This document shows positions 6,179-63,738 of a stretch of 64,000 bases of DNA, one piece after another. The position numbers were made by a program, and so were the translations under genes. The notes beneath the pieces were generated by a model. The model did not search any database and had not been told where the DNA came from. It saw nothing but the letters and a program-made list of their open reading frames with translations. Origin of the DNA: Acidimicrobiales bacterium. Its GTDB lineage: Bacteria; Actinomycetota; Acidimicrobiia; Acidimicrobiales; Bin134. Where the stretch lies: positions 1,664,897 to 1,728,896 of the forward strand of contig OZ246892.1 in NCBI GenBank assembly GCA_965231915.1, written 5' to 3'. How positions within the stretch are numbered: position 1 is the first letter of the stretch; the number at the start of each line of letters is the position of its first letter.

Positions 6179-6184
6179 GACTTG

Positions 6185-8249: not shown

Positions 8250-8303
8250 GGCCCTATGGTGCCACGTTGCCGTTAGCCGGGTTGAAGTGTCCGACAGCTC
8301 CGC

Positions 8304-8987: not shown

Positions 8988-9059
8988 TCTTCATCGAAGC
9001 TAGTGGTCGCAGTGAGCACAGGCCGGATCGGCGCCAGTCGCCCGGTATTGTGCCCGGCG

Positions 9060-10547
9060 ATGGAGTTGGTGATCGGCTCGGTATTCGACAATGCGGCCGC
9101 GACGGTGCCGTCTCGTCCGGCGGCGGTGCTGGGAGGGCAAACGATCTCCTACGGGGAGCTCAGCCGGCGGGCCAACCAGATGGGCCAAGTGCTGGCCGGG
9201 ATTGGGGTGAGCCGGGGCGACAGGGTGGTGACATGGAGCGACAACAACCTGGAGTCGGTGGCCCTGTTCGTAGCCCTGGCCCGTATGGGGGCGGTGTTCG
9301 CTCCGGCCAACGCCCGGCTCTCGTCTGATGAGGCGGCCGAGATGGTGGGGCTGGCCCGTCCCAAGCTGCTGGTGACCGGTCCCGGTCACGCCGAGGCCGG
9401 CCATGGTGTAGCCGAGGCAGTGGGAGTGCCGCTGGTGCGGTTGGGGGGGACCGGGCCTGATCTCGACTTGGTGGCCGAGGCCGAGTTGGCGTCGGCCACG
9501 GCACCAGTGCCGTCGCAGGTGGGGGAGACCGACCCCCATGTGGTGTTCTTCACCAGCGGCAGCACCGGGAAGTCGAAGGGTGTGGTGCTATCGCACCGGT
9601 GCAACTGGCTGCGCACCCGCACGCCTGCCCTGCTCGAACCCCGAAGGGCCACGGTGTGCATGTACCCGATGTTCCACATGGGGGCGTGGACCATCGCCCT
9701 TCAGGCCTGGCAGGCCCGGGGGGCGGTGGTGTTCACCGACCGGGCCGAGGCCGACGTGCTGATCGACGCCGTTCAGGACCACCAGGCCGCCTACATGAAC
9801 TGCATCCCCGCGGTGTGGCGCCGGGTGCTGGAGGCCAACCGGCACCATGACTTGGCCTCGCTGCGGTTCGCCACTTCAGGCACCTCGGCCACCCCGCCGG
9901 AGTTGCTGGCCGACTTGAAGGCCGCGTTTCCCCACGCTCATAGACGGGTGTTCTACGGATCCACCGAAGCCGGCTCGGTGACCATGCTGGACGACGCCGA
10001 TATGGAGTCTCGACCGGGAAGCTGCGGCCAGGCCCATACCGGTGCCGAGGTGCGGCTCGACCGGGGCGAGTTGCAGACCCGATCCCCGTTCATGTTCGAC
10101 GGCTACTTCGACAATCCCGAGGCCACCGCGGAGGCGTTCACCGACGACGGCTGGTTCCGCACCGGCGATCTGGCCGAGGTGGACGGCGACGGCTTCTACT
10201 CCATAACCAGCCGGGTCAAAGACGTGATCCGCACCGGCGGTGAGACGGTCTCGCCCGCCGAGGTCGAGGGCCACCTGGCCGACTTCCCCGGTGCGGCCGA
10301 AGTGGCCGTGGTGGGCATCCCCGACGACCGCTGGGGCGAGGTGGTGTGTGCCGTCTTCGTGCTGTCACCGGGCTCGGCTCTGCCCACTCCCGACGATGTG
10401 CAGGCCCACCTGAGCGATCGACTTGCCCGGTACAAGCACCCCCGCCGCATCGAAGCCATGAACACCATCCCCCGAACCCCCGCCACCAACCAAATCCGCC
10501 GCCGCGACGTGATAGCGGCCATCTTGGCGACCGGCATCCCGCAGTAG
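9060..10547 (+). CDS. AMP-dependent acyl-CoA synthetase/ligase
   Basis: FFTSGSTGKSKGV AMP-binding motif, YGSTEAG, GWFRTGD, KHPRRI. Start set at ATG 9060 (MELVIGS...). The track ORF's 5' extension is antisense to the 8304-8987 gene. Confidence 0.85.
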   Translation: MELVIGSVFDNAAATVPSRPAAVLGGQTISYGELSRRANQMGQVLAGIGVSRGDRVVTWSDNNLESVALFVALARMGAVFAPANARLSSDEAAEMVGLARPKLLVTGPGHAEAGHGVAEAVGVPLVRLGGTGPDLDLVAEAELASATAPVPSQVGETDPHVVFFTSGSTGKSKGVVLSHRCNWLRTRTPALLEPRRATVCMYPMFHMGAWTIALQAWQARGAVVFTDRAEADVLIDAVQDHQAAYMNCIPAVWRRVLEANRHHDLASLRFATSGTSATPPELLADLKAAFPHAHRRVFYGSTEAGSVTMLDDADMESRPGSCGQAHTGAEVRLDRGELQTRSPFMFDGYFDNPEATAEAFTDDGWFRTGDLAEVDGDGFYSITSRVKDVIRTGGETVSPAEVEGHLADFPGAAEVAVVGIPDDRWGEVVCAVFVLSPGSALPTPDDVQAHLSDRLARYKHPRRIEAMNTIPRTPATNQIRRRDVIAAILATGIPQ

Positions 10548-10558
10548 CTCCATTATCA

Positions 10559-10584
10559 TGTCGTCCGACAAGTGACAGACGACA
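10559..10584. promoter_or_regulatory. Inverted repeat TGTCGTC-N12-GACGACA upstream of higB (candidate operator)
   Basis: Perfect 7-bp arms at 10559-10565 and 10578-10584, 15 nt before the GTG of higB. Confidence 0.4.
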
Positions 10585-10599
10585 CTGTAGGCTGGAGTC

Positions 10600-10878
10600 G
10601 TGATCCAATCCTTCAAGCATCGGGGCCTGAGGGAACTCTATGAGGGCAAAGGTGGTCGGCGGGTCATACCTGAGCATGTCCAAAAGCTGCGCCGCATCCT
10701 TGCCGTCCTCGACCAGAGTCGAAATCCGATGGACATGGATCTGCCTGGATTTCGATTGCATGCACTGTCGGGTCGGCTGAAAGGCCACTACGCCGTGACG
10801 GTTTCGGCAAACTGGCGTGTGGTCTTCAGGTTCGAAGACGGACATGCAACAGACGTCGACTACGCCGACTACCACTAG
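10600..10878 (+). CDS. higB: HigB-type toxin (RelE/ParE superfamily, plasmid maintenance killer-like)
   Basis: MIQSFKHRGLRELYEGK...HALSGRLKGHYAVTVSANWRVVFRFEDG..DVDYADYH, a classic HigB sequence pattern. Toxin-first gene order. Confidence 0.85.
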   Translation: MIQSFKHRGLRELYEGKGGRRVIPEHVQKLRRILAVLDQSRNPMDMDLPGFRLHALSGRLKGHYAVTVSANWRVVFRFEDGHATDVDYADYH

Positions 10879-10890
10879 GAGAGTGAACAG

Positions 10891-11187
10891 ATGCCTATGA
10901 ACAACCCTCCACATCCAGGAGAGATCATCAAGTCGGAGTGCTTGGAAGCTCTAGGGTTGTCGATTACCCGAGCAGCCCAGGGTTTGGGAGTAACCCGTCA
11001 GGCGCTCTCCGATCTTGTCAACCAGAAGGCTGGCATTTCGATTGAGATGTCGTTTCGATTGTCACAGGCGTTCGGCTCCACTCCAGAGACATGGCTGGGA
11101 ATGCAACTGGCGTATGACCTTTGGCAGGCGCGGGAGCAGGCCGAGACGATCGAGGTCGAGAGTTTCGCTACTCCCAGCAAGGTATAG
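10891..11187 (+). CDS. higA: HigA-type XRE-family antitoxin
   Basis: HPGEIIKSECLEALGLSITRAAQGLGVTRQALSDLVNQKAGIS HTH. Immediately downstream of higB. Confidence 0.85.
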   Translation: MPMNNPPHPGEIIKSECLEALGLSITRAAQGLGVTRQALSDLVNQKAGISIEMSFRLSQAFGSTPETWLGMQLAYDLWQAREQAETIEVESFATPSKV

Positions 11188-50998: not shown

Positions 50999-51076
50999 GC
51001 AGCGGCTAACCAGCTTTTGGGGCGCCTGGAAAAGAAAGACCCGGCACTCGAAAGCACCGGGTGGGTGTGAACACCC
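50999..51076. repeat. Element E copy 1 (GCAGCGGCTAACCAG...GAAAAGAAAGACCCGGCAC..CACCGGGT + GGGTGTGAACACCC hairpin)
   Basis: Begins right after the helicase stop. Roughly 80% identical, with indels, to 56227-56331 over the flanks by hand alignment. Confidence 0.7.
51029..51062 (-). terminator. Intrinsic terminator candidate for the 1470-aa operon
   Basis: Minus-strand RNA ACCCGGUGC-UUUCGA-GUGCCGGGU (9 bp including 2 G-U pairs) followed by CUUUCUUUUCC. On the plus strand the wobble pairs become mismatches, so it is oriented for the minus strand. Confidence 0.55.
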
Positions 51077-51196
51077 TATCGGGGGCAGCTATGTCGACGT
51101 CATTCTTTGACCCGCGGAGTGGAGCGGGGTGGTTTTGTGAATTTGTCGGTTGGTACCGCGGTATTCGCATAGGCCCGCGCGGGCCGCGCGGTGGAG

Positions 51197-54100
51197 CTAT
51201 GTCGGCAAGCCTCGGCGGATGGTTTCGGCATCGCGGTCGTGAAGGCTGGCCTCGTGTTCGTAGCTGCGGGCCAATCTGCTGAAGATGGCTGCTGTACGGG
51301 GCCATTCCTGGTAGCGGCGGCTCCGCTCTTTGTAGCTCTCAGCTAGCTCGCGCTCTTGCTCACCGCCGGCTGTCGAGGAGCGGGAGGTGGTGCCGCGTCG
51401 GTTCCTTACGGCGATGCGAAAACCGCTATCAACGCTGTCGCTTTGCAGTCGTTCCAGCAGATTGCGGACAGCAAGCCCGGGCCACTCGCCGCCTGGGTCT
51501 TCGGGAGACGCGGCGAGGGCGGCACCGATCATGTCATCGCCTACAACAGTTCGGTCGATTGCCGCCAAGAGCGCACGAGCGTTGTAAACCCAATCTTGGA
51601 GAGGGTCGGCGTCCAGCCTGCCATCGTCATCGAGTGCCGGAACGAACTGCGAGACTGGCCACTCCCGCAATACTTGGTAAGCGCTGAGCGCTACCTGATG
51701 TTGAGCCTCAGTCAACGGAAGCATCTCATCTGGTGTAGCGCTGGCTGGCTTGAAGGCCGACTCGACGAGTTGCACGAAGAGTTCGGGGTCACAAGCCAGT
51801 TCCCGGTACAGATTCGGGGCATAGAACTCTTGTGCGAGATGCAGGAGCGGGTGGTACTTCCACTCAAGGATGGCGACTCGACCAATGCCGAGATGGCCTC
51901 GGTGCTTGTCGAGCACTTTGAATAGGGAGACCAAATCCCAGTAGGCGATGTCACCGCGCCCGGGCACGGTGCTTGGCTGCTTGATCCACTGTTCAAGCCA
52001 TGTTGCGGCCTCTTCGGCGAATTCAGCATGGGCCTCGAGGTCACTTGGGCTAAGCGCGAGCAGCGTCCGGGCCAATTCGAGGCGTCCCGCCTTCCGCAGT
52101 CGGCGACATACTTCGAGCAGTTGGCTCAACTCCCGTAGAATCCCGAGGTCGTAGGAACTCACCCGACGCCAGTACTCGGTCGCCACTTCGTCACCCCAAG
52201 CGTCTACCCGCTTCCAAGACAACTCCATTGGAGGTGGCACGCGCAGTACATCAGCGGCGACTTGTGGTGAGACGTCATTCTCTGAGAGAAGCTTGTCCAC
52301 GCCTTCCCATTGCAGTTCGGTGAACCGGTGGCCGAAGTAGCCCAAGGCGACTTCCGTAACCGCTGTGGGCGCGTCTTCCATGACCTCAAGAATGTCTTTA
52401 TCTAGGGCCGGGTTGCAGTAGGCAAGGGCGGTGCCAACTTGTCGAGGCTGGTCCACCGACCCGGCAAAGTCGAATACCACCTTGAGTCCTCCGTCGGCCA
52501 AGATAGCCCCCACCGCTTCTGCCTGCTTTTGCCGCAAAGCCGCTTGGAACTCCTCATATCCATCTGTTGCGTGGGCGCCATCGATGTACAGCAGGCCCGG
52601 TGAGAACAGGTGGCTATAGGCGACAGCGGGGTCAGCCGGACGAAGACGGTCTTGTAGCTGTTCCAGCGCTTCCAGTTCAGTTTCTTCATGCGTCCAAGTG
52701 GCTCCTCTGTAGCGGCGGTGACTAGCCAAAAGGTCTCGCAGCAGCGGCCACACCCTCGACTTGAACGTCTCATCGGGACTGGTGTCCGTAAGTCTGCTGA
52801 TTGTCGAGATTGCCTTGCGGCGCGCGTTGTCGGGCAGATCGGCGACGCGCTCGATCAGAGCGGACCAGCGCTCAGAATCCTCACCGGCATCCTCAACAAG
52901 CATCTCTGCGATTGCGGTGGTTGTGTCGGCGAATTCTCGCTGTGCCACCACTGGCTTAGCCGGCCGCCAGTCGCGGTAGCGAGGCATTGCGCTTGGCCAC
53001 TGGACGCTGTGGGTGCTTGGCAGCATCGATAGCATCAATGTCCAAGCGATACTTGAGTGGGACTGTCGCAGCATTCGAACTGCTGCGAGACGATCAGCAG
53101 CGTCTGCCGATGTGTTGGGCAGCCACGGACACATGATCGAGGCGAGGCTCTTGGCCGGTCGGTTTGAGTACCGGCCACCGGGGTCGATCAGGGCAAGCCG
53201 GGCGAGCATATCAGCGGCGGCCAAGAGGTGCTCGGGCGACCATGCGATGACCTCCAGCGCATTCAGGATGCGAAAATGGGGCGACGAAGCGGCAAAGCCG
53301 AACCAGTCGGAGTCGCCATCTTTGAACATGGCTTGCGCGAAGACGTGCGACTCAGCGAGGCAGGTGCGCAGGGCTTCCAGCACGGCTTCGGGCGCGGCCT
53401 CGGCTAGAAGCGTCAACGTGTCGGAAACGGCATCCCAGGTTCTAGGGGATGCGTCGTCCATTGCTGATCTGAGCAGTCTTCGAGTGATGCCCTCAGCCAT
53501 TCCTGAGATCGACGTAGTGGCTCCGTCCGTCGCCGAAGGACTGCTGCCAGCCAGCGCTAGCGTGGTTGCGACTCCTTGTTTGAGCTGAGACGAGTACTTC
53601 GCATCTACCTCCTCAGCTTGGGCACCGAGCGCTTCCTCATAGGTCAGCTCCCGCAGTGGGTCGGCATCGGTGAGCACCTCGCGGGCGATCTTCGCGAATT
53701 CCGCCACATCGCTGGCAGAAAGCTGATCGTGCAGCAGCATCCAAGTGTCCGCCGGTGACACCACATGGGCCAGTTCGCCGGTCGTGGTCATGGGCGCGTC
53801 ACCGGCATCGAGCTGGCGCAACGCCTCGGCAACCGCATTGGATGAAAGGCCGGTGAATCTCTCCACAATCTGGAGATCACCCGTATATGCCTCATTCCAG
53901 CCGCCGAGCAGCAGGCTGCGCCGCAGCGTCTTGTCGACCTGCCCCTTCGCCCATTCCGGCGTGTGCAAGGCGGGGTCGATGCTGAGATGCCTTCTGAGCG
54001 CCATCAGGCTAATTCGAGCCATTCCGCCAAGCCGGTGTGCCGCATGAAGCTCCACCCGATTGTCCTGCAATCGTTGGGCCACTAGTTCTGAGTCAACTGC

Positions 54101-55609
54101 GCTGAGGACAATCTCGGCCTGTGTCGAGCCGGGGACCGGCACGATCATCCGATGCGGGCACCCTGCGGGCAGGTGGTCAGCATATTCTGCCGACGGCACG
54201 ACCACCGTCAGCGCAGTTGTCGTCCGTCTGTGCTCCCCATTGCCCGACAGCGCCTCAGCAGCGAACAGACGACGGGCGGCGTCTTGGGTGTCCACGTACA
54301 ACACGTCGCCGAACGGTGTCTCCGAGGTGTCGCCTGCGACGAGCGCAGCCGAAACGAACGCCAGGATCTCGTCGCGCTGGATATGGCCTCCAACGGTCAC
54401 GACTCCGCGACTTTGTCGGCAGCGGTCGCGCAAGCTCTCCGCGGCCTGTTCGCGCCCTGACAGCACAAACCCTTCGTCAAGGGGTGGCCTCGTCGATTCC
54501 AACCACTTCGTCCACCATGCCGAGAGCAGGCCGATTCCCGCCACCGGAGCCCCCATCTGCTCGCGCAGCCACACCGTGGTGGCGGGTGCGCACTCCAGCC
54601 AAGCCTCCAAGCTGTCGACATTCAGAGCCACCACCTGTTGAAAGTCGCCCTTGGCCGTGCGATCCCGCTCGAAGTCTCGTGCCTTGATCCATGGGGCGCA
54701 CACCACGGCGACATAAGCCGTATCGGCTCGTTCCTCGGGTGGTGTATCGGCGACCCGCTTGTCGTAGTCGCGGCCAGCCTTCTCATGCGAGCCGCTCTGC
54801 TTGGTTGACAGCTCCCAGACTGACTGACCGGCAGGCACGTAGCGATTGCCTCGATCGCATCGCACGATACCGTCCCAACCGGGTGATGCCACGCCGGTGC
54901 CCGCAGGCATATCGACCCACTCAGCGGACGGCTCAGTCTCAGCAATGAGGCTGCGAACCAGGCGCGGCAGCACTTGATCTGAGCCGGCCGCTTTCGCCCA
55001 TACCAGCAGATTGTCGCGAGTCACCCGCAGAGATTCAGGAACCGAGGGGACGAGCGGAACCGGAGGAATCAGTGCATTCGCGAGCTCGCGGGCGATCTTG
55101 AGGTCTTCGGCAGGCCCAAGGGCCAGCAGGCCGCTGCCGCTCAGCCCCTCAGCGATCCGCCCGAGGTCGCGGACTCGATCCGCAGCGAGGGGGCTTCGGA
55201 TAGCGAACTCCCGCAAGCTCTCCCCGGCAGCCACCCCTGTCCGCAGATCGGCAATCTCTGGGCGGGCGCGGGCAAAGGCCTCTCGGAGTTCATCTGCGGC
55301 CACTGCCGCAAGCTCTCCGCCCAGGGGTGCGTCGCCGCGCAGCCGCACCTCTTCGCTCACTTGGCGAAGCCAGTTCCGCCGTGGCACGTCGTCCGCTATC
55401 TCGTCGAACATACCGAGCCGCTTGCCAGCTTCAGCCAAGAGCATCTCTCTCATATCGCCGCCATTTGAAGCGGGTAGCCCGCGCAGTCCCTCGATCCATG
55501 CCTGCTCGAATTCGTAGAAGTCCATCGCCTCTGCGATGCGTTCCAGCGCGGAGTTGGCTATCTCTTGTGCCGGTTCGACCGACGGGTTCGGCGGGGCAGT
55601 GGCAGTCAT
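51197..55609 (-). CDS. Very large protein (1470 aa) of unrecognised family; no P-loop; probably all-helical
   Basis: Uninterrupted 4.4-kb ORF with coding-like codon usage. ATG overlaps the stop of the upstream small ORF (ATGA). No GxxxxGK[ST], DPPY, HExxH or helicase motifs found on reading. Confidence 0.8.
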   Translation of the reverse strand: MTATAPPNPSVEPAQEIANSALERIAEAMDFYEFEQAWIEGLRGLPASNGGDMREMLLAEAGKRLGMFDEIADDVPRRNWLRQVSEEVRLRGDAPLGGELAAVAADELREAFARARPEIADLRTGVAAGESLREFAIRSPLAADRVRDLGRIAEGLSGSGLLALGPAEDLKIARELANALIPPVPLVPSVPESLRVTRDNLLVWAKAAGSDQVLPRLVRSLIAETEPSAEWVDMPAGTGVASPGWDGIVRCDRGNRYVPAGQSVWELSTKQSGSHEKAGRDYDKRVADTPPEERADTAYVAVVCAPWIKARDFERDRTAKGDFQQVVALNVDSLEAWLECAPATTVWLREQMGAPVAGIGLLSAWWTKWLESTRPPLDEGFVLSGREQAAESLRDRCRQSRGVVTVGGHIQRDEILAFVSAALVAGDTSETPFGDVLYVDTQDAARRLFAAEALSGNGEHRRTTTALTVVVPSAEYADHLPAGCPHRMIVPVPGSTQAEIVLSAVDSELVAQRLQDNRVELHAAHRLGGMARISLMALRRHLSIDPALHTPEWAKGQVDKTLRRSLLLGGWNEAYTGDLQIVERFTGLSSNAVAEALRQLDAGDAPMTTTGELAHVVSPADTWMLLHDQLSASDVAEFAKIAREVLTDADPLRELTYEEALGAQAEEVDAKYSSQLKQGVATTLALAGSSPSATDGATTSISGMAEGITRRLLRSAMDDASPRTWDAVSDTLTLLAEAAPEAVLEALRTCLAESHVFAQAMFKDGDSDWFGFAASSPHFRILNALEVIAWSPEHLLAAADMLARLALIDPGGRYSNRPAKSLASIMCPWLPNTSADAADRLAAVRMLRQSHSSIAWTLMLSMLPSTHSVQWPSAMPRYRDWRPAKPVVAQREFADTTTAIAEMLVEDAGEDSERWSALIERVADLPDNARRKAISTISRLTDTSPDETFKSRVWPLLRDLLASHRRYRGATWTHEETELEALEQLQDRLRPADPAVAYSHLFSPGLLYIDGAHATDGYEEFQAALRQKQAEAVGAILADGGLKVVFDFAGSVDQPRQVGTALAYCNPALDKDILEVMEDAPTAVTEVALGYFGHRFTELQWEGVDKLLSENDVSPQVAADVLRVPPPMELSWKRVDAWGDEVATEYWRRVSSYDLGILRELSQLLEVCRRLRKAGRLELARTLLALSPSDLEAHAEFAEEAATWLEQWIKQPSTVPGRGDIAYWDLVSLFKVLDKHRGHLGIGRVAILEWKYHPLLHLAQEFYAPNLYRELACDPELFVQLVESAFKPASATPDEMLPLTEAQHQVALSAYQVLREWPVSQFVPALDDDGRLDADPLQDWVYNARALLAAIDRTVVGDDMIGAALAASPEDPGGEWPGLAVRNLLERLQSDSVDSGFRIAVRNRRGTTSRSSTAGGEQERELAESYKERSRRYQEWPRTAAIFSRLARSYEHEASLHDRDAETIRRGLPT

Positions 55610-55842
55610 GGTGCTCCAAAATCGTAGCTGCGAACAGCACCTGAACGGATGCGGATTCCAGCGGCCTCGAACGCTTCTCGGGCAACTTCGAGGCTTGCTG
55701 CGGCCGGCTGGTAGTGCCCGCTCATGTTGTCGAGTGCCGACACAACAAGCGCCCCTAGTTCTGCCAAGACTTCGAACTCACCGGCAGCTTGTACTGGGCC
55801 ACCGTAGGCGAGCACCGCATGGGAGATGTGCTCAACGCCCAC
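55606..55842 (-). CDS. Small protein (78 aa), translationally coupled to the 1470-aa gene; possibly the 3' half of a frameshifted gene
   Basis: GTG start inside the end of the previous ORF. Stop overlaps the ATG of the giant gene. Sequence HISHAVLAYGGPVQAAGEFEV...LDNMSGHYQP not assigned to a family. Confidence 0.5.
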   Translation of the reverse strand: MGVEHISHAVLAYGGPVQAAGEFEVLAELGALVVSALDNMSGHYQPAAASLEVAREAFEAAGIRIRSGAVRSYDFGAP

Positions 55843-56014
55843 TTGACGCCAGCAGCCGGCCGCCCGCTACGACGTAGATCATCCTCTCACCCTCGGCCGC
55901 CAAGGCGTCGAATGCTGTGCTGGGAATCCCGACAGGCATGAGGCCGACTCGGCGAGCCACATCCAACTCTTGCTGAAGCTGGGACGGCAAACGGTTGTAG
56001 TACGGGGGTGACAA
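55832..56014 (-). CDS. Small protein (60 aa), first ORF of the minus-strand operon; possibly the 5' half of a frameshifted gene
   Basis: TTG start 13 nt after GAGGA. Overlaps the next ORF by 11 nt in another frame. Confidence 0.4.
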   Translation of the reverse strand: MSPPYYNRLPSQLQQELDVARRVGLMPVGIPSTAFDALAAEGERMIYVVAGGRLLASSGR

Positions 56015-56029
56015 GGTGCCGCTTCTGTC

Positions 56030-56110
56030 CTCATGGCTAATAGATTCGTAAGCATCTTATAGTAAAGGAAATATAATAGAATACTATGATAAATTACAAA
56101 AGAGTTCAAT
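56030..56110. promoter_or_regulatory. Extremely AT-rich spacer, probable promoter region of the minus-strand operon and a recombination junction
   Basis: Hand count of 56041-56100 gives 13/60 G+C (22%) in a roughly 66% GC context. Contains TATAAT-like strings (ATATAATAGAATACTATGATAAAT). Confidence 0.5.
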
Positions 56111-56125
56111 ATCTCTGCCCAGCGC

Positions 56126-56240
56126 CATCTGTGGTGGGCTCGGCGGTCGTTGGCGGCGGCTCGGGCGGTGACTTGGGCGTCGCTGGTGGATGATCCTTCG
56201 GGGGATTTGTCGTTGACGCCGGAGGAGCAGCGGCTGACCA
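56126..56240 (+). pseudogene. 5' remnant of a second DUF1156-type methylase gene (codons ~46-88 only)
   Basis: Translates [37 protein letters not shown] versus the intact gene's [42 protein letters not shown]. There is a 34-nt identical run at 56173-56206 = 59654-59687. No start codon or downstream domains. Confidence 0.8.
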
Positions 56241-56331
56241 GTTGGGGGTGCCCAGAAAAGAAAGACCCGGCACACCCTAGGCGAGCTTTCGACTCCCTAG
56301 GTGAGCACCGGGTGGGTACGGCAAATGTACC
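56227..56331. repeat. Element E copy 2 (expanded hairpin version)
   Basis: Same flanks as copy 1 (GCAGCGGCTGACCAG..AGAAAAGAAAGACCCGGCAC...CACCGGGT) with an inner CCTAGG...CCTAGG extension. The second hairpin GGTAC-GGCAAAT-GTACC replaces GGGTG-TGAA-CACCC. Confidence 0.7.
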
Positions 56332-56412
56332 GGGGCGGCGGCGGTGTTGCAAGCACCTATTGGCGGGTGCTTGTTCCGCGAGCTGGCTACTAGCCTGGCG
56401 GTCTGCGGTGCC

Positions 56413-56456
56413 CGCCGACGATCTTGGGGAGTTGGCAGGCGAAAAAATCGTCGGCG
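56413..56456. promoter_or_regulatory. Perfect 10-bp inverted repeat CGCCGACGAT-N24-ATCGTCGGCG just upstream of the XRE gene RBS
   Basis: Arms at 56413-56422 and 56447-56456. The RBS GAAGGAGG and GTG 56472 follow. Confidence 0.4.
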
Positions 56457-56471
56457 GTGAAGGAGGACACC

Positions 56472-56792
56472 GTGGCCAACTACTCGCGATGGGAGAGCAT
56501 CAAGAAACAGCGCGGCGAACCATCAGAGGAGACCCGTGCTGGCATCGAGCAGGACTTGGCCCTGGGACAGTTGATCTATGACATGCACCGCGGGGCCAAC
56601 CTCAGCCAGAGGGAACTGGCTCAGCGCATGGGCACCACTCAGTCGGTCATATCCCGACTCGAAGAGGGCGGTGGCGCACGGAACCGGATCGACACCCTTG
56701 CCCGGGTCGCCACGGCCTTGGGTCGACACTTGGTGGTCTCGTTTCCCACGGAGGTCCCTGACTCCCTCGAAGACGCAGTGCAAGTCGCATGA
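56472..56792 (+). CDS. XRE-family HTH protein (HigA2-like antitoxin/regulator)
   Basis: GTG 56472 preceded by [35 protein letters not shown]. 106 aa. Confidence 0.8.
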
Positions 56793-56864
56793 GCGCCCTA
56801 GAGAGTTGCTCTTCTTGCGACTCTCCATTGTCTGATCTTTTGAGCCTTCTGCGATACTGGCGGC

Positions 56865-57503
56865 GTGTTGGACCCCGTGACGCAGGCTCGCGAGCTCATC
56901 AGAATCGTGTCCCGCGATACGAGGTTGCCTAGGTATGTCCGCAGAAGCGCGGCCAGCCTTCAGGCGCTGGCTGCTGTCCAACCTCCGCTAGTTCTTGATG
57001 GTCTCGAGGCACTTCGACAGAGGGTTATTCCCGACCTGGCTTTGCAGCAGCCAACTTGTGATTACGCACGGTGTGTCTCTGTTGACGCATTCTGGGAGCA
57101 CAACCTGCACTCGGAGCGCCGTGCTGCCTTCGTGACCTCGAAGGATTATCTCCATTGGCTGAGACTTCAGGCTGATCCTGCGACATCTGCCCTCAATGAC
57201 ATCTCGACTGGCAACATCGTGCCTGCTGCCCACTCTTGGATGGTGCCCGCGGCCAACATCGCTGGGTTGAATGGCCGCAGCCTGAAAGTCCGGCTGAAGC
57301 TCAGCAATAGCGAGCCTCCCTATCTGATTTTCATATTTCCCGTGGCGAAGCTGCAAGCAGCCGGTGTGCAAGTGCGCGAGCCACGTGGGGTGGACGCAGT
57401 GCCCGCTCGACATGTGCAGTGGTCGCCAGGGGGCGTACCCGATGAGCGGATCGATCAGGATATTCCGTATGCCGCTCTGGGAGGAATACAATGGCGGCCA
57501 TAG
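56865..57503 (+). CDS. Hypothetical protein (212 aa)
   Basis: ORF with GTG start, 72 nt after the XRE gene, overlapping the next gene by 13 nt. No family recognised. Confidence 0.55.
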   Translation: MLDPVTQARELIRIVSRDTRLPRYVRRSAASLQALAAVQPPLVLDGLEALRQRVIPDLALQQPTCDYARCVSVDAFWEHNLHSERRAAFVTSKDYLHWLRLQADPATSALNDISTGNIVPAAHSWMVPAANIAGLNGRSLKVRLKLSNSEPPYLIFIFPVAKLQAAGVQVREPRGVDAVPARHVQWSPGGVPDERIDQDIPYAALGGIQWRP

Positions 57504-58936
57504 AGCAGCCCTCACCCGCCCTGTACAGTGCGGTGCTCCACATTTTGGGCAACACCGATTCCCACACACGGTCGATGTCGGTCACGATGTCCGATCTGGT
57601 AGAGCATCTCAACGCTGAGCAGGCTGCCCGCTTGCCGGATGCAATCGGCCAAGTCCTCCCGCTGCTGGGCAATGACCCGGAGCGGCTGCGATTCGCGGCA
57701 CATCTTGCCGTTCGATTCGACCTTTTTGAAGCGGCTGCTGAATTGGCGGAGATTGCTTTAGCTGTCGACGATCGCGATCTGAAGCTTGCCGCGGCGATGC
57801 TCTGCGGGAATCCGGCTGTCGAAGCCCCAGTCCGCCAGCGAGTTGCCAAGGCAGTGGCCGATGACCCGTTCGGCCTGATAAGGCTGGATCGCGGCTTTGT
57901 TCCTGGAACAGAAGACGAGCAGCGTCTGTATGCGCAGTGCTGGCCGGGTGTCCGCACCGAGTCCTCGCATTTGCCGCAGACTCCGGCAGTAGTGCTGGAT
58001 GGGAACTACCCGGCTGATGCAGCCCTTCGCTTGGCTGTTCGCCTCGACAAGGCCGGTGCATCAGTACGTCGGCTCTCACCGGGGGCTCGAATCCCGTATT
58101 GGTTCGGTGCCCAGACCGTGCTCGTCTGCCAGGCGCCTACCAGAAGCCGAGTTTTGAACAGCTATCCGCAGTTTCCCGAGCGCCAGATACTGGTTGTGGA
58201 TATGCCTGCGGGTAATCGGGAGGCCGACGGGCTGCTGCGCCGAGTAAACGGCGCGCTGGCCGGGCCGCACAGACTCGCACTCGGTGGATTGGGGTCGGAG
58301 GTTGGATACGCTGTTTGGGCGCCTGAAGTGTTCACCGCTGGGGCTTACACCACCAAGGATGCGGCGTTTTTGGCCGGGACCACGTCTTCCTCGCTCAACC
58401 GCCTTCGCACCCGGGGAGTTCTCGAACCACGCAATGCGGGGATTTTCCTCTGGACGTTTCGAGACGTGGTAGCGGTTCGCACTTGGGCATATCTGAAGTC
58501 GGTGACGAGAAAACGGATTCCAAGCAAGGTTGTCGAGGAACTGGCCCGGTTTGCCGGTGACTCCGAGGCAGTACGGCTTGGAGCCACATCCGAGGGGAGG
58601 GTGCTGGTAGACCAGGGAGACGGATGGGATGACGTGGTGAGCGGCCAGAGGGTGATGGGGATCCCCATCACCGACATCGACGAAGTCTTTCGTCCGTTTG
58701 ACTACGGAGGCGGCACCACGCTTGACCTGCTTCAAGCCAGCGCAAACACCGAGCTACACCCAACAGTCCTCAGCGGCACTCCCTACCTTCACGGCCATCG
58801 GATTAGCGCCAAGGCATTGGCAAGCGTCGACACCCTCTGTCGGCGAGAGGCCATTGAAGCTGCCTACCCCGAGTTGGCGGGCAAGTCGTTCGAAGACACG
58901 GTGTCGGTTGGCAAGCAGCTCTTGAGCGCTTTCTAA
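57491..58936 (+). CDS. Fusion protein: unknown about 280-aa N-terminal domain + MerR-like HTH/DUF433 (VapB45-like) C-terminal half
   Basis: C-terminal YTTKDAAFLAGTTSSSLNRLRTRGVLEP...WTFRDVVAVRTWAYLK ... HPTVLSGTPYLHGHRISAKAL matches the DUF433 antitoxin-type layout. Confidence 0.65.
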   Translation: MAAIEQPSPALYSAVLHILGNTDSHTRSMSVTMSDLVEHLNAEQAARLPDAIGQVLPLLGNDPERLRFAAHLAVRFDLFEAAAELAEIALAVDDRDLKLAAAMLCGNPAVEAPVRQRVAKAVADDPFGLIRLDRGFVPGTEDEQRLYAQCWPGVRTESSHLPQTPAVVLDGNYPADAALRLAVRLDKAGASVRRLSPGARIPYWFGAQTVLVCQAPTRSRVLNSYPQFPERQILVVDMPAGNREADGLLRRVNGALAGPHRLALGGLGSEVGYAVWAPEVFTAGAYTTKDAAFLAGTTSSSLNRLRTRGVLEPRNAGIFLWTFRDVVAVRTWAYLKSVTRKRIPSKVVEELARFAGDSEAVRLGATSEGRVLVDQGDGWDDVVSGQRVMGIPITDIDEVFRPFDYGGGTTLDLLQASANTELHPTVLSGTPYLHGHRISAKALASVDTLCRREAIEAAYPELAGKSFEDTVSVGKQLLSAF

Positions 58937-58938
58937 CC

Positions 58939-59301
58939 GTGCGGTTTCTCTACGACGCTGTCCTGCCCCAGAGCCTTTCTCTCGAAGCGCCGACAGGAGT
59001 GACGTTTGACCGCTGGGATGGTTCTGCTGTTTCAGACGCCGAGCTCGTCCGCGCCTCTGCGGAGCGAGGATGCCGCGGCGTGATCCTCTGGGGCCGTGAC
59101 TCACTTCAACAAGCAGACCTTCGAGACACCGCCCAAGAAGCAGGCGTGGCTCTCGTGGCGGTAGAAGCCGACAACCCCGTTGAAGCCAAGCAGCGAATCC
59201 TGAGGAATTTATCTTTGTTGCGCCGGAAGTTGGCGGAGCATGACTGCCTGCTCGTGCTAGCCAGCGAAGTCCGCCCCATGGAGAGCGCCAGTTCGCTGTA
59301 G
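58939..59301 (+). CDS. DUF5615-like (PIN-like, VapC45-type) protein
   Basis: MRFLYDAVLPQSL...SDAELVRASAERGCRGVILWGRDS resembles DUF5615, the usual partner of DUF433. Lies 2 nt after the upstream stop. Confidence 0.6.
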   Translation: MRFLYDAVLPQSLSLEAPTGVTFDRWDGSAVSDAELVRASAERGCRGVILWGRDSLQQADLRDTAQEAGVALVAVEADNPVEAKQRILRNLSLLRRKLAEHDCLLVLASEVRPMESASSL

Positions 59302-59462
59302 AAGCCATCTGTACCGTTGTTCCCGCTTCCCCGACCGGGGTCAGCAACCTCCGTCAGTTTTAGATGCATGCGAGAGGCGGGTGTCCGTAGATGGCGGTGA
59401 GGTGACGTTTCGGATTGGCGAACTCGCGAGGCCCTTGAGAATCGAGGACGGCGGGAGGGAGA

Positions 59463-62255
59463 TTGTGGCTGGCTGGGGTAGCGTGGCTCGCTGTGAGTGA
59501 GGGGGGCTATCGGCCGAAGCTGATTGAGGTGGCTTTGCCTTTGGCGGTGATCAATGCGGAGGCGGCGAGGGAGAAGTCGATTCGGCATGGGCATCCTTCG
59601 ACTTTGCACCTTTGGTGGGCGCGGCGGCCGCTGGCGGCGGCGAGGGCAGTGATTTGGGCGTCGCTGGTGGATGATCCTTCGGGGGATGAGTCGCTGACTT
59701 CGGAGGAGCAGGAGGCTGAGCGGCAGCGGCTGTTTGGCATCTTGGAGCGGCTGGTGAAGTGGGAGAACTCCAACAATCCTGAGGTGTTGGGTGAGGCCCG
59801 GGCGGAGATCGACCGCTGCTTCCCGGAGGGGCCGCCGCCGATCCTCGATCCGTTCGCCGGGGGTGGGGCCATTCCGCTGGAGGCACAGCGGTTGGGGCTC
59901 AAGGCGCTGGCTGGAGACTTGAATCCGGTGGCGGTGCTGATCAACAAGGCGATGATCGAGATACCGCCGCGTTTCGCCGGGATGCCGCCAGTGCATCCGG
60001 ATATCGACAAGAGCCTCACGACGTGGGATCGGGCGCAGGGGTTGGCTGCGGACGTGGAGGCGTATGGGCGGTGGATGCGTGATGAGGCCAAGCAGCGCAT
60101 CGGGCACCTGTACCCGGATGCGACAGGGCCTAACGGTGAGAAGCTGACGCCGATTGCCTGGATATGGGCGCGGACAGTGGAGTCTCCTGATCCGAGTTGG
60201 TCGGGGCATGTGCCGTTGGTGGCGTCATGGACGCTCGTCAACAAGCCGGGCAAGCCGAAAGTATGGATTGAGCCGATCATTGATCGGGATGCACAGACAA
60301 TCAGTTACGAGGTTCGTGAGGGCGGGGAGCCTTCGCGCGAAAGGACCGTGAAACGGGGCAACGGCACCTGCATCGCCACCGGTGCAGCGATCTCCGGTGA
60401 CTACATAAAGTCCGAAAGCCGTGCCGGGCGCATGAGCCAGCAACTCATGGCTGTTGTCGCGGAAGGCGTTGGCGGGCGTAGCTACCTCCCTGTCATGGCT
60501 CAAGAAATTGAAGCTGCCAAGTGCAAAGAACCTGAATGGAAACCCGAGGGCAAGAACCCCGAGAAGCTGACTGGCGGCACCGTCTACATCTATGGCTTTG
60601 ACGAGTGGTGGAAGTTGTTCACACAGAGACAGTTAGTAGCGTTGACCACATTCTCAGACCTCATTGCCGAAGTTGCGGAGCGAGTGGCTGGGGATGCCGT
60701 TGCTGCGGGTGTTTTCGACGACGGCGGGCGGCTTCGCGACGGCGGGCGAGGTGCAACGGCCTATGCCGATGCTGTCGTCACATACCTAGCCTTGGGCCTT
60801 AGCAGGCTTACTGACATGTGCAATGCCTTCTGCAGATGGGAATCTTCTAGAACGCAGGTGCGTAACTTGTTCAGCCGACAAGCTATTCCAATGACGTGGG
60901 ACTTTGCGGAGAATAACGTGTTTAACAAAGCTGGAGGCGACTTCCAAACTTCCCTTGGAAGCCTAGTACGGGCATTGGAGCAACTTCCTGCTAGCGGCAG
61001 CGGCGAAGTTGTCCAGCGAGATGCTCGAGCTCGAATTCAAGAGCATGAGGGAGCAATTATTTCTACTGATCCGCCTTACTACGACAACATTTCCTATGCA
61101 GACCTCTCTGATTTCTTCTTCGTCTGGTTGCGAAAGAATGTCGCGGAGATTTGGCCAGATGAGTGCTCCACGCTCCTAACACCGAAAGCCGATGAGCTGA
61201 TTGCCAATAGGTATCGAGCTGGTTCGAGAGAACAAGCAGAAGAACATTTTGAGTCAGGCATGGCAGAATTCATGTCTCAAGTAGCTCAGTATCAATCAGT
61301 TGGAGTCCCTGCCACGGTCTACTACGCATACAAGGCAACAGAGACAAAGGAGGGGAATGTCCGTGTCACCGGCTGGGATACATTTCTCCAGGCTGTTCTA
61401 GACGCGGGTTTGCAAGTGAATGCCACCTGGCCGATGAGAACCGAGCTGGGTAACCGCTTGCTGGCTTCAAGGAGCAATGCTTTGGCATCTTCCATCGTGC
61501 TGGCTTGTCGTCCACGAGCAGTATCGGCATCCCTTGCTACTCGCGGAGAGTTCATCGCAGCACTTCGAGCGGAACTCCCCGAGGCGGTACGCATCCTGCA
61601 AACGGGGAACATCGCCCCGGTTGATATGGCCCAGTCCACCATTGGGCCGGGGATCAAGGTGTTCTCGCGGTACGCTAAGGTGGTTGAGGCTGATGGGTCG
61701 TCGATGCCGGTGTCGGCGGCGTTGGCGATCATCAACGATGTGCTGGGCGAGGTGCTTGACGGGGAGGAAGCGGAGTTAGACCGTGACACCCGGTTTGCCC
61801 TGACCTGGTTTTCTGAGCATGGCTACAGCCCTGGTTCCGCCGGAGACGCTGACAGCGTGGCCAATGCCAAGAACACATCGTTGGCAGGAATTGAAGAATC
61901 AGGCATTGGTGAGGCTCGTGCTGGCAAGTTCCGGCTGTATGAGCGTTCGGAACTTGCCGAGGGCTGGTTGCCCGCCGAGGATTTGCGGCTGACGGTGTGG
62001 GAGGCACTCCAGTATCTGATTGCCGCCTTGGAGCGGTCGGAGTCGGAGGCGGCTGAGCTGTTGCACACCCTGGGCGGCTACGGCGAGCGGGCCCGCCAAC
62101 TGGCCTATTTGCTCTACCAGAAGGCCAACGACAAGGGATGGGCCGCCGAAGCCGGCGCCTACAACACCCTCATCACCGCCTGGCCCAGCCTTCGGACCGG
62201 GGCCGACGCCTCCGCCGCCGCAGCCTCGGCCCCCGTCCAAGACGCGATGCTCTGA
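59463..62255 (+). CDS. DUF1156-domain (COG1743-type) N6-adenine DNA methyltransferase
   Basis: KLIEVALPLAVINAEAAREKSIRHGHPSTLHLWWARRPLAAARA (DUF1156 hallmark), DPFAGGGAIPLEAQRLG SAM loop, STDPPYYDNISYADLSDFF catalytic motif. True start may be GTG 59493. Confidence 0.85.
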   Translation: MWLAGVAWLAVSEGGYRPKLIEVALPLAVINAEAAREKSIRHGHPSTLHLWWARRPLAAARAVIWASLVDDPSGDESLTSEEQEAERQRLFGILERLVKWENSNNPEVLGEARAEIDRCFPEGPPPILDPFAGGGAIPLEAQRLGLKALAGDLNPVAVLINKAMIEIPPRFAGMPPVHPDIDKSLTTWDRAQGLAADVEAYGRWMRDEAKQRIGHLYPDATGPNGEKLTPIAWIWARTVESPDPSWSGHVPLVASWTLVNKPGKPKVWIEPIIDRDAQTISYEVREGGEPSRERTVKRGNGTCIATGAAISGDYIKSESRAGRMSQQLMAVVAEGVGGRSYLPVMAQEIEAAKCKEPEWKPEGKNPEKLTGGTVYIYGFDEWWKLFTQRQLVALTTFSDLIAEVAERVAGDAVAAGVFDDGGRLRDGGRGATAYADAVVTYLALGLSRLTDMCNAFCRWESSRTQVRNLFSRQAIPMTWDFAENNVFNKAGGDFQTSLGSLVRALEQLPASGSGEVVQRDARARIQEHEGAIISTDPPYYDNISYADLSDFFFVWLRKNVAEIWPDECSTLLTPKADELIANRYRAGSREQAEEHFESGMAEFMSQVAQYQSVGVPATVYYAYKATETKEGNVRVTGWDTFLQAVLDAGLQVNATWPMRTELGNRLLASRSNALASSIVLACRPRAVSASLATRGEFIAALRAELPEAVRILQTGNIAPVDMAQSTIGPGIKVFSRYAKVVEADGSSMPVSAALAIINDVLGEVLDGEEAELDRDTRFALTWFSEHGYSPGSAGDADSVANAKNTSLAGIEESGIGEARAGKFRLYERSELAEGWLPAEDLRLTVWEALQYLIAALERSESEAAELLHTLGGYGERARQLAYLLYQKANDKGWAAEAGAYNTLITAWPSLRTGADASAAAASAPVQDAML

Positions 62256-62263
62256 CGGCACTT

Positions 62264-62466
62264 GGGCTGATCGCGGAAAGCGGGCACCTGTTGCGGCGCG
62301 ATGAGACCGAGCAGCAGATGTCCAACCGGCGATCGGCAAGGCGACCGCCGATACTGGTGCGCAAGGCCGGTTACCGCCCCAGAGTCCAGGATGAGGGTTC
62401 AACCTTCTGCTCACTGTTCTCAGTTGTAGTAGTTCCTGCCCCAGAGTCCAGGATGAGTGCCCTCAC
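62264..62466 (-). pseudogene. Decayed PIN-toxin gene (module A), internally duplicated and cut off by the methylase 3' end
   Basis: GTG 62466 overlaps the antitoxin-A stop (GTGA). VRALILDSGA is followed by junk, then a second out-of-frame LILDSGAVTGLA. Homology to PIN B (LVLDSGAVTALA) fades before 62260. Confidence 0.65.
62377..62457. repeat. Direct duplication of the 19-mer CCCCAGAGTCCAGGATGAG (62-nt period)
   Basis: Copies at 62377-62395 and 62439-62457. A diverged third copy (CTCCAGAGTCCAGAACGAG) lies at 63415-63433 inside the intact PIN gene. Confidence 0.85.
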
Positions 62467-62740
62467 TGACGGATGTCTTTTGTCAGATGCTCTTCTATGG
62501 GGCGCCACCAGGCTTCGGCGCTCGCCATCTCCTCTTCTGAGGGTTCTCCTATCTCCTCGAAGAGCTCAGCGATGCACCGCTCATGTTTCTCGCGGAGCTT
62601 TTGTTTATGGGCTTCCGAGATGATGATGGGGTCGGGCACCTAGTCGGCCCACTCATCTCAGATCTCGTTCTTTTCCTCTTCGGTAAGCGCCTGGATGTCG
62701 CTCATCGGGCTTTTGCGGTCCAACACGAGCCCACTTCTAT
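62463..62740 (-). pseudogene. Decayed antitoxin gene (module A), paralogue of 63439-63738
   Basis: Translation ..RSGLVLDRKSPMSDIQALTEEEKNEI*DEWAD*VPDPIIISEAHKQKLRE...EEMASAEAWWRPIEEHL has in-frame TGA (62658-62660) and TAG (62640-62642). The 22-nt run 62719-62740 is identical to 63695-63716. Confidence 0.7.
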
Positions 62741-63049
62741 TTCCAGAGCCCCCACGGTCTCTTCGAGTGCGCCAGATTCTCACTACAACGGTCACCAGCC
62801 GACCGAGAATCAGAATAGCGAAAATCGAGCCCGGCATCGATAGCAGTACATACCCGGCGTTAGGAAGCCGAGAATCGAAATGCCGAATCAGATAGCCCCC
62901 GCCAAACGCGCCGACAAATGCGAGAAGCGGCACCTGGAGCTTTTCCCAACGCCAGCGCCGATCCCGAAACCGGTCCCGAACTGCGAGCTGCCCACCCCTT
63001 CCACCACAGTACAGGGCTAGTGCCCCCTTGTTTGAAGCCGGTCGAATCT

Positions 63050-63442
63050 CTACTTCGACATACCAAAAACGCTTACGTCTTGGGCGTGGGAGGCCAGCGC
63101 TGTGAGGTCTTTGATGTCGCTGGTAATGACGGTGCCTCCAGGTTCAGCCATGGCGACTACTACCGCGTCAACGGCAGAGCCGCGACCAGCCTTAGCCCTC
63201 AGGGAACCCGCTCGACGCGCCAGCCTTTCGTGGGGGCCGTCAACCACCACGCAAGTCTTCAGGAAGCGGTTGACCACTGCGTCTGTGTGCTGACGGCCTG
63301 ACAGGCATTCTACAAGGACAATGGAAGGCACGAATGCAGGCAAGGAGTCGTGTATTTCGGTTAGGGGAGCTCCTGCTGCCAATCGCCCACCTCGGCGAGC
63401 TAAAGCGGTGACTGCTCCAGAGTCCAGAACGAGGTTGTTCAA
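63050..63442 (-). CDS. PIN-domain toxin (module B, intact)
   Basis: TTG 63442 overlaps the antitoxin stop (TTGA). LVLDSGAV, VLVEC, DAVVVAMA, ITSDIKD acidic PIN residues. Confidence 0.75.
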   Translation of the reverse strand: MNNLVLDSGAVTALARRGGRLAAGAPLTEIHDSLPAFVPSIVLVECLSGRQHTDAVVNRFLKTCVVVDGPHERLARRAGSLRAKAGRGSAVDAVVVAMAEPGGTVITSDIKDLTALASHAQDVSVFGMSK

Positions 63443-63738
63443 CGTCTGTTCGTCTTCTTCAGGTGTTCCTCGATGGGACGCCAAAAGGCTAGGGATTGGG
63501 CCATCTCCTCAGGGGATGGTTCCCCAAATTCTTCGAACTGCTCAGCGAGGTACCGGTCGAATTCTTCGCGGAGCTCTTGTCTGCGGGCCTCTGAGATGAT
63601 GATGGGGTCAGGTACGTAGTCGGCCCACTCGTCTTCGAACTCGCCATCGTCGGGTTTGGTGCCGGCCCAGTCGGTGGACGTCAGGTCGCTGCGATCCAAC
63701 ACGAGCCCACTTCTATCAGCTCTGAGCATGAAAATCAA
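63439..63738 (-). CDS. Putative antitoxin of PIN module B (family not recognised)
   Basis: 99-aa acidic protein, translationally coupled to the PIN gene. Start could be 63738 or 63729. Confidence 0.6.
   Translation of the reverse strand: MIFMLRADRSGLVLDRSDLTSTDWAGTKPDDGEFEDEWADYVPDPIIISEARRQELREEFDRYLAEQFEEFGEPSPEEMAQSLAFWRPIEEHLKKTNRR

Follow-up and report, generated by a model that had tools for sequence, protein, structure and literature searches.

The 64,000-nt stretch of DNA analysed here (the window; Acidimicrobiales bacterium, assembly GCA_965231915.1, contig OZ246892.1, positions 1,664,897 to 1,728,896) contains a locus of the Hma (helicase–methylase–ATPase) defence system as defined by PADLOC (Payne et al., 2021; PMC8565338). 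Within this locus two direct copies of a hairpin element, E, stand on either side of a 5.2-kb module with a giant open reading frame (ORF) (Table 1). The product of the helicase gene hmaA matches the PADLOC profile over its full length (1312.9 bits, profile positions 2–1171 of 1176) and has the Pfam domains SNF2-rel_dom, Helicase_C and NOV_C, the last of which (NOV_C/DUF3883) is the domain that PADLOC asks for in this system. The methylase gene hmaB is intact further downstream (PADLOC 1084.6 bits; Pfam DUF1156, E-value 4e-28). The first-pass annotation took the E pair as the signature of a cassette that had integrated through E. The repeat is real and its explanation is ordinary: a duplicated, predicted intrinsic terminator at an old duplication or recombination scar in a documented defence hotspot. 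Element and process are of known kinds, and the E pair is one further instance. Related loci are cited by number (L001 and so on).

Table 1. Features of the Hma locus, with positions counted from the first base of the window.
Feature	Position (strand)	Description
hmaA	47453..50998 (+)	SNF2/DEAD helicase with C-terminal NOV_C domain; Hma defence system
E copy 1 (E1)	50999..51066 (-)	Putative intrinsic terminator, short-loop form; hairpin 51039-51062, U-tract 51029-51038
Small-gene remnant	51081..51110 (+)	Last 9 codons (GGSYVDVIL) and stop; parent gene 56 aa, weakly DUF2188-like
T	51111..51138 (+)	Terminator-like hairpin CCCGCGGAGTGGAGCGGG then GTGGTTTTGT (terminator scan)
Giant ORF	51197..55609 (-)	1470 aa, family-less protein
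78-aa ORF	55606..55842 (-)	Overlaps and lies upstream of the giant ORF; 5'-shortened form of the relatives' 94-139-aa gene
Lower-G+C spacer	55843..56117	G+C 0.57; collinear with L014 and L025
hmaB' remnant	56118..56230 (+)	Codons ~45-83 of DUF1156 methylase; start removed by a 152-nt deletion
Illegitimate joint hmaB'/E2	56225..56236	GGAGGA/GCAGCGGCTG
E copy 2 (E2)	56227..56317 (-)	Putative terminator, long-hairpin form; hairpin 56265-56313, U-tract 56255-56264
Remaining NYN 3' untranslated region	56318..56389 (-)	Two small hairpins, 56315-56331 and 56351-56372
NYN' remnant	56390..56460 (-)	Last 22 codons and stop of 216-aa NYN-domain gene
XRE-type helix-turn-helix regulator	56472..56792 (+)	106 aa from GTG at 56472; Pfam HTH_3, HTH_37
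212-, 481- and 120-aa genes	56865..59301 (+)	Variable slot of the second unit; function not assigned by any family
Intact hmaB	59463..62255 (+)	DUF1156 adenine methylase; probable start GTG 59493

Copy 1 starts at the first base past the hmaA stop codon, as had been noted, and the two copies described at 50999–51076 and 56227–56331 are present with the motifs quoted for them and with a similarity far above chance. Their homologous parts are 50999–51066 and 56227–56317, both ending after CACCGGGTGGGT. They are ~79% identical in a pairwise alignment, with a 25-nt apical insertion in copy 2, and the longest identical run common to both is 19 bases. The 19-mer GAAAAGAAAGACCCGGCAC occurs exactly twice in the window, once in each copy, and still only twice when up to three mismatches are allowed, where 0.02 matches are expected by chance. 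A profile made from 11 E copies (nhmmer) matched the window only at E1 and E2, with E-values of 9.5e-28 and 6.3e-16, and the next match had an E-value above 1.

A scan for the exact 19-mer in one genome for each of 185,579 species found it in five Acidimicrobiia, once each in L001, L002, L010 and L012 and twice in L011. These five are metagenome-assembled genomes (MAGs) from different lineages of sponge symbionts, Ca. Poriferisodalis and Ca. Poriferisocius among them; seven further matches, in unrelated organisms, are about as many as chance would give. One additional related match came from a scan of metagenomes (L014, on a 110-kb contig). E lies directly after the hmaA stop in L001, L002, L010, L011, L012, L014, L030 and L031, which is the position of E1, and the 19-mer is strictly conserved although the hmaA genes are only 70% identical. 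E could be read as a miniature inverted-repeat transposable element (MITE) or another dispersed repeat of the REP (repetitive extragenic palindromic) kind that happens to be present twice, since it is short (~70–95 nt), palindromic and found twice in 5.3 kb. The first-pass annotation had kept a recurrent MITE as its alternative, and this does not hold: the complete chromosomes of relatives (3.6–4.1 Mb) have one exact copy (L001, L010, L012) or two (L011), at the hmaA locus only, and the second copy in L011 is 5.3 kb further along in the same Hma locus. The profile has only its two matches in the 64 kb of the window. There is also no target-site duplication; E1 is flanked by the hmaA stop and the small-gene remnant, and E2 by hmaB' and the NYN 3' untranslated region (UTR). 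We therefore regard a dispersed repeat as hardly credible.

E exists in different hairpin forms. At the orthologous site after hmaA, where these relatives have their one copy, the short-loop form of E1 is found in L012 and the long CCTAGG form in L002, L010, L014 and L030. The inner CCTAGG/CCTAGG helix that had been described for copy 2 is indeed there and is formed by the 25-nt apical insertion, and the loop TCGAAAG of copy 1 is, as reported, the reverse complement of CTTTCGA in copy 2. The whole short loop TCGAAAGC (hairpin 51039–51062) is the reverse complement of the apex GCTTTCGA of the long form (56265–56313). A mere deletion in the long form does not account for the short one. A loop flip or hairpin template switch in the palindrome may have produced it, for which the support amounts to only four bases beyond the self-complementary TCGA.

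The basal stem was retained as reported and is invariant in sequence over nine copies. Two further statements about the structure had to be given up. Firstly, the second small hairpins were thought to differ by compensatory changes, but the two sequences are not homologous, since the homology of the copies ends at 51066 and 56317. The hairpin GGTAC-GGCAAAT-GTACC is part of a conserved NYN 3' UTR that is also present in L012, L014, L011 and L025, and GGGTG-TGAA-CACCC sits on the joint of a deletion that only the window has, and no counterpart exists at E1 of L011. Secondly, structure was said to be conserved more than sequence. Among the nine copies no pair was changed on both sides and the counts equalled those of shuffles; there is no covariation signal because the stems are almost invariant.

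The element has the properties of a Rho-independent (intrinsic) terminator of the minus strand in the convergent gap after hmaA. The suggestion that copy 1 acts as a minus-strand terminator, and that E is terminator-like in general, is supported by the pattern: the predicted stem runs from 51062 to 51039 and is followed by CTTTCTTTTC, and copy 2 has the same layout. A terminator scan of the minus strand of E1 reported ACCCGGTGCTTTCGAGTGCCGGGT followed by CTTTCTTTTC, with 10 pairs of which six are G-C. The basal stem, read on the minus strand, is ACCCGGUGC/GUGCCGGGU with the tail CUUUCUUUUC, and this tail lies directly 3' of the stem in 11/11 copies; there is no U-tract on the plus strand. Folding is strand-specific in the same direction. 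E1 folds with −16.0 kcal/mol on the minus strand (z = −2.65) and −10.9 kcal/mol on the plus strand (z = +0.17), and E2 with −34.1 kcal/mol (z = −3.6) and −27.4 kcal/mol, respectively. Two basal pairs account for this asymmetry: they are G.U when the minus strand is folded but turn into A.C mismatches in the plus-strand fold. Sequence variants occur at one apical pair (U.G, C-G or U-A) and as one G.U in L030, and minus-strand pairing is kept in all of them. The length of the apex (7 nt, 31–32 nt and other forms) is unusually variable for a terminator.

The gene that would be served by this terminator is a 216-aa minus-strand NYN-domain gene (Pfam NYN, 25.2 bits against a cut-off of 24.2). Its stop codon lies 70–130 nt from the hairpin in L002, L010, L012, L014 and at E2 of L011, converging with hmaA, and because E faces the NYN gene in all of these we consider E to be its probable terminator. 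In Poriferisodalis (L001, L027) the minus-strand gene that faces hmaA is a Macro-domain gene and not NYN, and L001 has kept an identical basal stem and U-tract around a different apex. In the window itself, E1 is now 135 nt past the stop of the giant ORF (51197) and E2 is preceded only by the 22-codon NYN remnant. E thus shares with intrinsic terminators the G+C-rich hairpin, the immediate U-rich tract, the position 70–135 nt after a co-oriented stop between convergent genes, and the strand specificity brought about by G.U pairs. It is probably not a classical bidirectional terminator, as its plus strand is without a U-tract. Actinobacterial hairpins without a U-tract are reported to stop transcription, and E might end transcripts of hmaA in this way too.

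A different function for E would be that of a structured regulatory RNA, either a small RNA or a cis-regulatory leader. The strict conservation of the 19-mer would fit this, and a permissive Rfam search gave a weak match of the minus strand of E1 to suhB/mmgR (21.9 bits, E-value 0.016 for 251 nt). The cut-off of that family is 41 bits and the same search gave no suhB/mmgR match for E2, so that we dropped this identity as a terminator look-alike; at gathering thresholds Rfam contains no family for E. Covariation is absent from the nine copies, the apex is freely variable, and the conserved part is exactly the stem arm and the U-tract. A regulatory RNA therefore seems very unlikely.

The sequences on both sides of E2 show how the second copy came to its place. 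On the left, hmaB' runs directly into E2 (GGAGGA followed by GCAGCGGCTGACC), and this novel joint connects hmaB codon ~83 to the first base after the hmaA stop. A 105-nt part of the remnant (56126–56230, codons ~48–83) is 87% identical to 59607–59711, the second copy of this repeat within the 5' end of the intact hmaB. The remnant is 93% identical to hmaB of L014, where the gene has the same place, and 99% to a corresponding remnant in L025; it therefore appears to be the in-situ residue of a resident hmaB. All intact hmaB alleles read GAGCAG-GAGGCnGAGCG-GCAGCGGCTG at the joint and the end of hmaA reads CTGCTGAGCAGCGGCT, which places the joint in a microhomology of either GAGCAG (6 nt, including the GA of the hmaA stop) or GCAGCGGCTG (10 nt). 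On the right, a stretch of 155 nt (56314–56468) matches the 3' UTR and the end of the NYN gene in L012, L011 and L014 with 90–95% identity, and the minus-strand translation of 56390–56460 gives the C-terminal 22 residues of the NYN protein, as compared with L012. With the hmaB' remnant on one side and the NYN' remnant on the other, E2 looks like a passenger in a larger duplicated unit.

The closest relative, L025, is 95% identical over 51118–56477 of the window and has the identical hmaB'–E2 joint and the same 152-nt deletion of the hmaB' start. Behind E2, L025 still has the NYN gene in full, then the small gene, an insertion sequence (IS) and hmaB. The joint, the flanks and the arrangement in L025 agree in defining the repeated unit as the segment from E to the 5' end of hmaB. 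Both ends of this unit are repeated in one order, E1 ... hmaB'(56118–56230) and E2 ... hmaB(59607–59711), with a single novel joint, and sequence comparison with L025 indicates that the two-unit array predates the split between the window lineage and L025. The claim that the E pair marks a genuine rearrangement is thus well founded.

Around E1 the first unit has been eroded. By comparison with relatives E1 is the positional orthologue of their E. After CACCGGGTGGGT it continues into ~14 nt of unassigned sequence, then the small-gene remnant and then T. In relatives the small gene lies beyond NYN; its 56-aa product in L025 ends in ...GGGYVDVIL, and DUF2188 (weak) is on record for its homologue in L031/L032. 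Since only the last nine codons of the small gene follow E1, the NYN gene and most of the small gene, ~0.9 kb, must have been deleted relative to L012, L014 and L002. E1 of L011 continues instead into a 3' remnant of an XRE gene, and the two loci depart from the canonical E–NYN arrangement at the identical base. In L025 (reverse complement, ~540–2330) the E next to hmaA is split by an IS with a DDE_Tnp_1_4 transposase; the IS target is the CTAG of the CCTAGG inner helix, and CTAG is duplicated on both sides.

We consider it quite probable that one microhomology-mediated illegitimate recombination either duplicated the segment from E to the hmaB 5' end or fused two diverged Hma alleles, and that deletions and replacement of the slot content came afterwards. 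The ancestor would have resembled L014, with the order hmaA – E – NYN(-) – small gene(+) – T – giant ORF(-) – 94-aa gene(-) – hmaB. A single illegitimate recombination could then have joined hmaB codon ~83 to the first base past the hmaA stop, by means of GAGCAG or GCAGCGGCTG, and produced a tandem array of two units, the first running from E to hmaB' and the second from E to hmaB. Unit 1 would later have lost NYN and most of the small gene, which would give the junction between E1 and the small-gene remnant, and unit 2 the body of NYN and the second copy of the giant ORF, with the XRE gene and the 212-481-120 genes in their place; the XRE gene does stand in place of the NYN gene body. The E pair is thus a by-product of a segmental duplication, or of an equivalent unequal exchange between two Hma alleles, and not an attachment site. 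The order of events and the mechanism are our reconstruction from the positions, homologies, joints, fold asymmetry and single-copy status in relatives that were observed. As in known tandem segmental duplications, there is one novel joint with 6–10 nt of microhomology, both unit ends are repeated and redundant genes were lost. Different from these is that the units are now very unlike in content and that their repeated ends are ~79–87% identical, which implies that the event is old or took place between two diverged alleles.

Several points weigh against this reconstruction. E1 and E2 are only ~79% identical, and hmaB' resembles hmaB of L014 (93%) more closely than it does the intact hmaB of the window (87%); a strictly recent duplication in cis is therefore unlikely. 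The alternatives are an old event or a later replacement of one unit through recombination with a different strain. The route may have been in cis, through a circle or through incoming DNA. The E2-type copy of L011 has a different left junction, consisting of the hmaB start and 17 nt, and this could be a second independent joint at the same E boundary, which is unexpected for purely random breaks. L012 resembles an "empty site" relative to the block between E1 and E2. Furthermore, the terminator role of E is drawn from sequence and folding, and the copy counts cover the relatives' chromosomes and, for the source organism, the 64-kb window.

The integration reading itself can be judged by the arrangement in relatives. 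It takes the giant-ORF module for a cassette that entered through E, and the occurrence of the module without flanking repeats in related strains had been named in advance as evidence against it. This is the arrangement that was found, and the cassette is not supported. L014 reads hmaA – one E – NYN(-) – 56-aa gene(+) – giant ORF(-) – 94-aa gene(-) – spacer – full hmaB; its positions 6017–10969 (reverse complement) are 90.6% identical to window 51184–56128, and the full hmaB follows directly. L030/L029 read hmaA – one E – 212-481-120 – T – giant ORF(-) – 94-aa gene(-) – hmaB 3' fragment – hmaC, and L031/L032 read hmaA – one E – small gene – AAA_21 – RloB – SIR2 – 483-aa gene – T – giant ORF(-) – 94-aa gene(-) – hmaB – ... 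– hmaC. In L026 the giant ORF lies between hmaA and hmaB and the shared E sequence is absent; in L027 (Poriferisodalis) a diverged E-like sequence follows hmaA and the giant ORF adjoins hmaB, after which comes hmaC. The module thus accompanies a single E in L014, L030/L029 and L031/L032, no E at all in L026 and an E-like but diverged sequence in L027. What lies between E and T differs from locus to locus, and the homology of the window to L025, L030 and L031 begins at 51118/51119, inside T. The giant ORF adjoins hmaB in L014, L025, L026, L027 and L031 and an hmaB 3' fragment in L029/L030. On this comparison the giant-ORF module is a resident part of the Hma locus and a partner of hmaB, and not an E-bounded cassette.

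A Campbell-type event would require that a circle made up of the small-gene remnant, T, giant ORF, 94-aa gene, hmaB' and E had recombined at E, or at E and NYN, into a chromosome of the L012 kind with hmaA – E – NYN. L012 is what speaks for it. In this locus hmaA is followed by a short-loop E and then by an E2-type right flank, the order to be expected if E1 and E2 had been merged into one. The identity of L012 to the window is 92% for hmaA and 95% for the 155 nt that follow E2 on the right, and in the 2.1 kb seen past the small gene L012 has a different large minus-strand ORF instead of the giant ORF. The expectation of a single-site relative without the block is therefore borne out in that nothing lies between E and the E2-type flank of L012, but only there, and the empty site of the specific form helicase–E–XRE was not found, as genomes with a single E read helicase–E–NYN. 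The 212-481 module, moreover, lies on opposite sides of E2 in the window and in L011, and a circle that enters at E or at the hmaB 5' end would give both arrangements. Such a circle needs the joint between hmaB' and E, however, so that the same illegitimate event must be assumed in another Hma locus, and E would contribute only ~70 nt of homology and would not be a dedicated site. The two copies, with at most 19 identical bases in a row, are a poor substrate for homologous recombination. In five relatives (L014, L030, L031, L026 and L027) the Hma locus contains the module but no more than one E. A scan of ORFs between 45.9 and 62.3 kb detected no integrase, transposase or recombinase domain, and the second unit (56227–59462) has no match in plasmid and phage collections. 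A Campbell-type origin through such a circle, although formally equivalent to the reconstruction above, is accordingly improbable.

A variant with homologous recombination only is also doubtful, and we would place little weight on it. The hmaB'–E joint would then be the closure point of a circular intermediate running from E to the hmaB 5' end, and either of these two ends could have served for its homologous re-entry into Hma loci. If this were true, the window and L011 would be two reciprocal products, and the Hma loci of sponge symbionts would be a platform on which defence cassettes pass between strains without an integrase, the E hairpin being a preferred breakpoint.

E could also be a dedicated recombination site, comparable to attC or att, which captures defence cassettes between hmaA and hmaB. 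The hairpin is found at the left edge of the variable region, and several independent breakpoints lie at or in it, in the window (between E1 and the small-gene remnant), in L011 (between E1 and the XRE remnant) and in L025 (the IS in the apex), while the apex itself varies by indels and possibly by inversion. An integrase or recombinase was not detected in the scanned ORFs of the window or in the related loci, IS transposases aside. Most loci have one E however many cassettes they contain (L030, L031), with three to eight inserted genes and still one E, and the cassettes are not individually bounded by E. Further breakpoints (at about 56335, 56424 and 56468) are scattered through the ~400 nt that adjoin E on its right. 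That rearrangements spare E is better explained by selection for the terminator, since the basal stem and U-tract are what a terminator needs. A site-specific function of E is thus very hard to maintain. With integron attC sites, the att sites of phages and integrative and conjugative elements, and MITEs, E has in common that a short imperfect palindrome lies on both sides of a gene block. It differs from them in the absence of an integrase, of repetition for each cassette, of target-site duplication and of dispersal in the genome, and in that copy 2 is flanked by fragments of the normal neighbours of E.

The segmental duplication, which we prefer, fits what is known of Hma loci. In a 2024 study of Halomonas, ~66.5% of hma systems had insertions between hmaA, hmaB and hmaC, mostly defensive and foreign, and the term "hotspot" was used (PMC11232893). 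The window is similar in that hmaA (SNF2 and NOV_C) and hmaB (DUF1156) are separated by unrelated, probably defensive genes, and its relatives have hmaC (DUF499). The insert differs, being here the giant 1470-aa ORF, NYN and the 212-481-120 trio and in Halomonas Septu, PARIS, Ppl and AAA_21 pairs; a partial tandem duplication of the unit between the genes was not described there (PMC11232893). The locus exemplifies turnover in this hotspot by microhomology-mediated duplication of a unit, reciprocal loss, replacement of slot content and IS insertion, and the terminator next to hmaA stayed intact through all rearrangements seen except in L025, where the IS split it. The value of the case is mainly corrective, as direct repeats around a gene block are easily taken for an integration signature and the comparative loci say otherwise.

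A more interesting subject nearby is the family of the 1470-aa protein that is paired with hmaB. At least 161 homologues were found, without a family match for any of them, and the 120 listed are 1206–1523 aa in length and mostly come from sponge-associated MAGs. In six of seven contexts the giant ORF forms a divergent pair with hmaB together with a preceding 94–139-aa gene, and the protein may for this reason be an unrecognised accessory of this Hma variant. It had no match in Pfam (E-value ≤ 10), NCBIfam, PADLOC or PDB sequence profiles. An AlphaFold (AF2) model of residues 1–480 was confident only for a helical N-terminal domain, and Foldseek with this model returned designed helical repeats only. 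One stretch, predicted as alpha-beta-beta-beta-alpha-beta, contains the invariant residues D246, E266 and K277 and could point to a PD-(D/E)xK-like core; it is too poorly modelled for us to call the protein a nuclease. The large minus-strand ORF of L012 was considered as a homologue and is not homologous.

The spacer upstream of this operon corresponds in relatives to the divergent intergenic region between the giant-ORF operon and hmaB, and a motif scan found a promoter-like site in this region on the minus strand (56099–56070). The 78-aa ORF is 94% identical to the 94-aa gene of L025 and 67% to the 139-aa gene of L027. Minus-strand positions 55832–56014 match the N-terminal part of the L027 gene in another frame, and by this alignment the small gene upstream of the giant ORF appears to be frameshifted or 5'-truncated. 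In two relatives hmaA is split into ORFs of 796 and 393 aa (L029 17436–20983, L030 14302–17849) with the rest of the locus intact, and it is probably a frameshifted pseudogene in these.

Content of the second unit recurs at other positions. The XRE gene (plus strand) is 87% identical in nucleotides and 92% in amino acids to a gene of L026 (20209–20529, minus strand) that lies directly upstream of hmaA, and the regulator seems to be transferred as a whole from one place to another within Hma loci. The 212-481-120 trio occupies the slot between E and T next to hmaA in L029/L030 (73% nucleotide identity) and lies between both E copies in L011 (96%). We regard the trio as a candidate defence cassette; library scans with its three products gave no family matches. 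The 346- and 483-aa genes of L025 were examined as counterparts of the 212- and 481-aa genes and are not homologous to them. A 28-nt repeat family (D3; 38069 and 57967) was dismissed as chance, as 64 kb should contain over 100 occurrences of its exact 12-nt seed.

Beyond hmaB, no hmaC (DUF499 ATPase) was found between 62255 and the end of the window at 64000. Relatives have hmaC, with DUF499 fused to HEPN_Swt1, 1–6 kb past hmaB (L027, L029–L032), so that the gene may lie past 64000. Their gap between hmaB and hmaC holds PIN/PhD or SIR2-DUF4020 genes and is a second insertion slot of the system. The region 3' of hmaB in the window (62370–63643) contains a 185-nt direct repeat (62483–62667 and 63459–63643, 75% identical) and 26-nt repeats at 62370, 62432 and 63408, and the minus-strand ORFs at 63050–63484 and 63439–63738 match two genes of L025, of 129 and 96 aa, that come after its hmaB.

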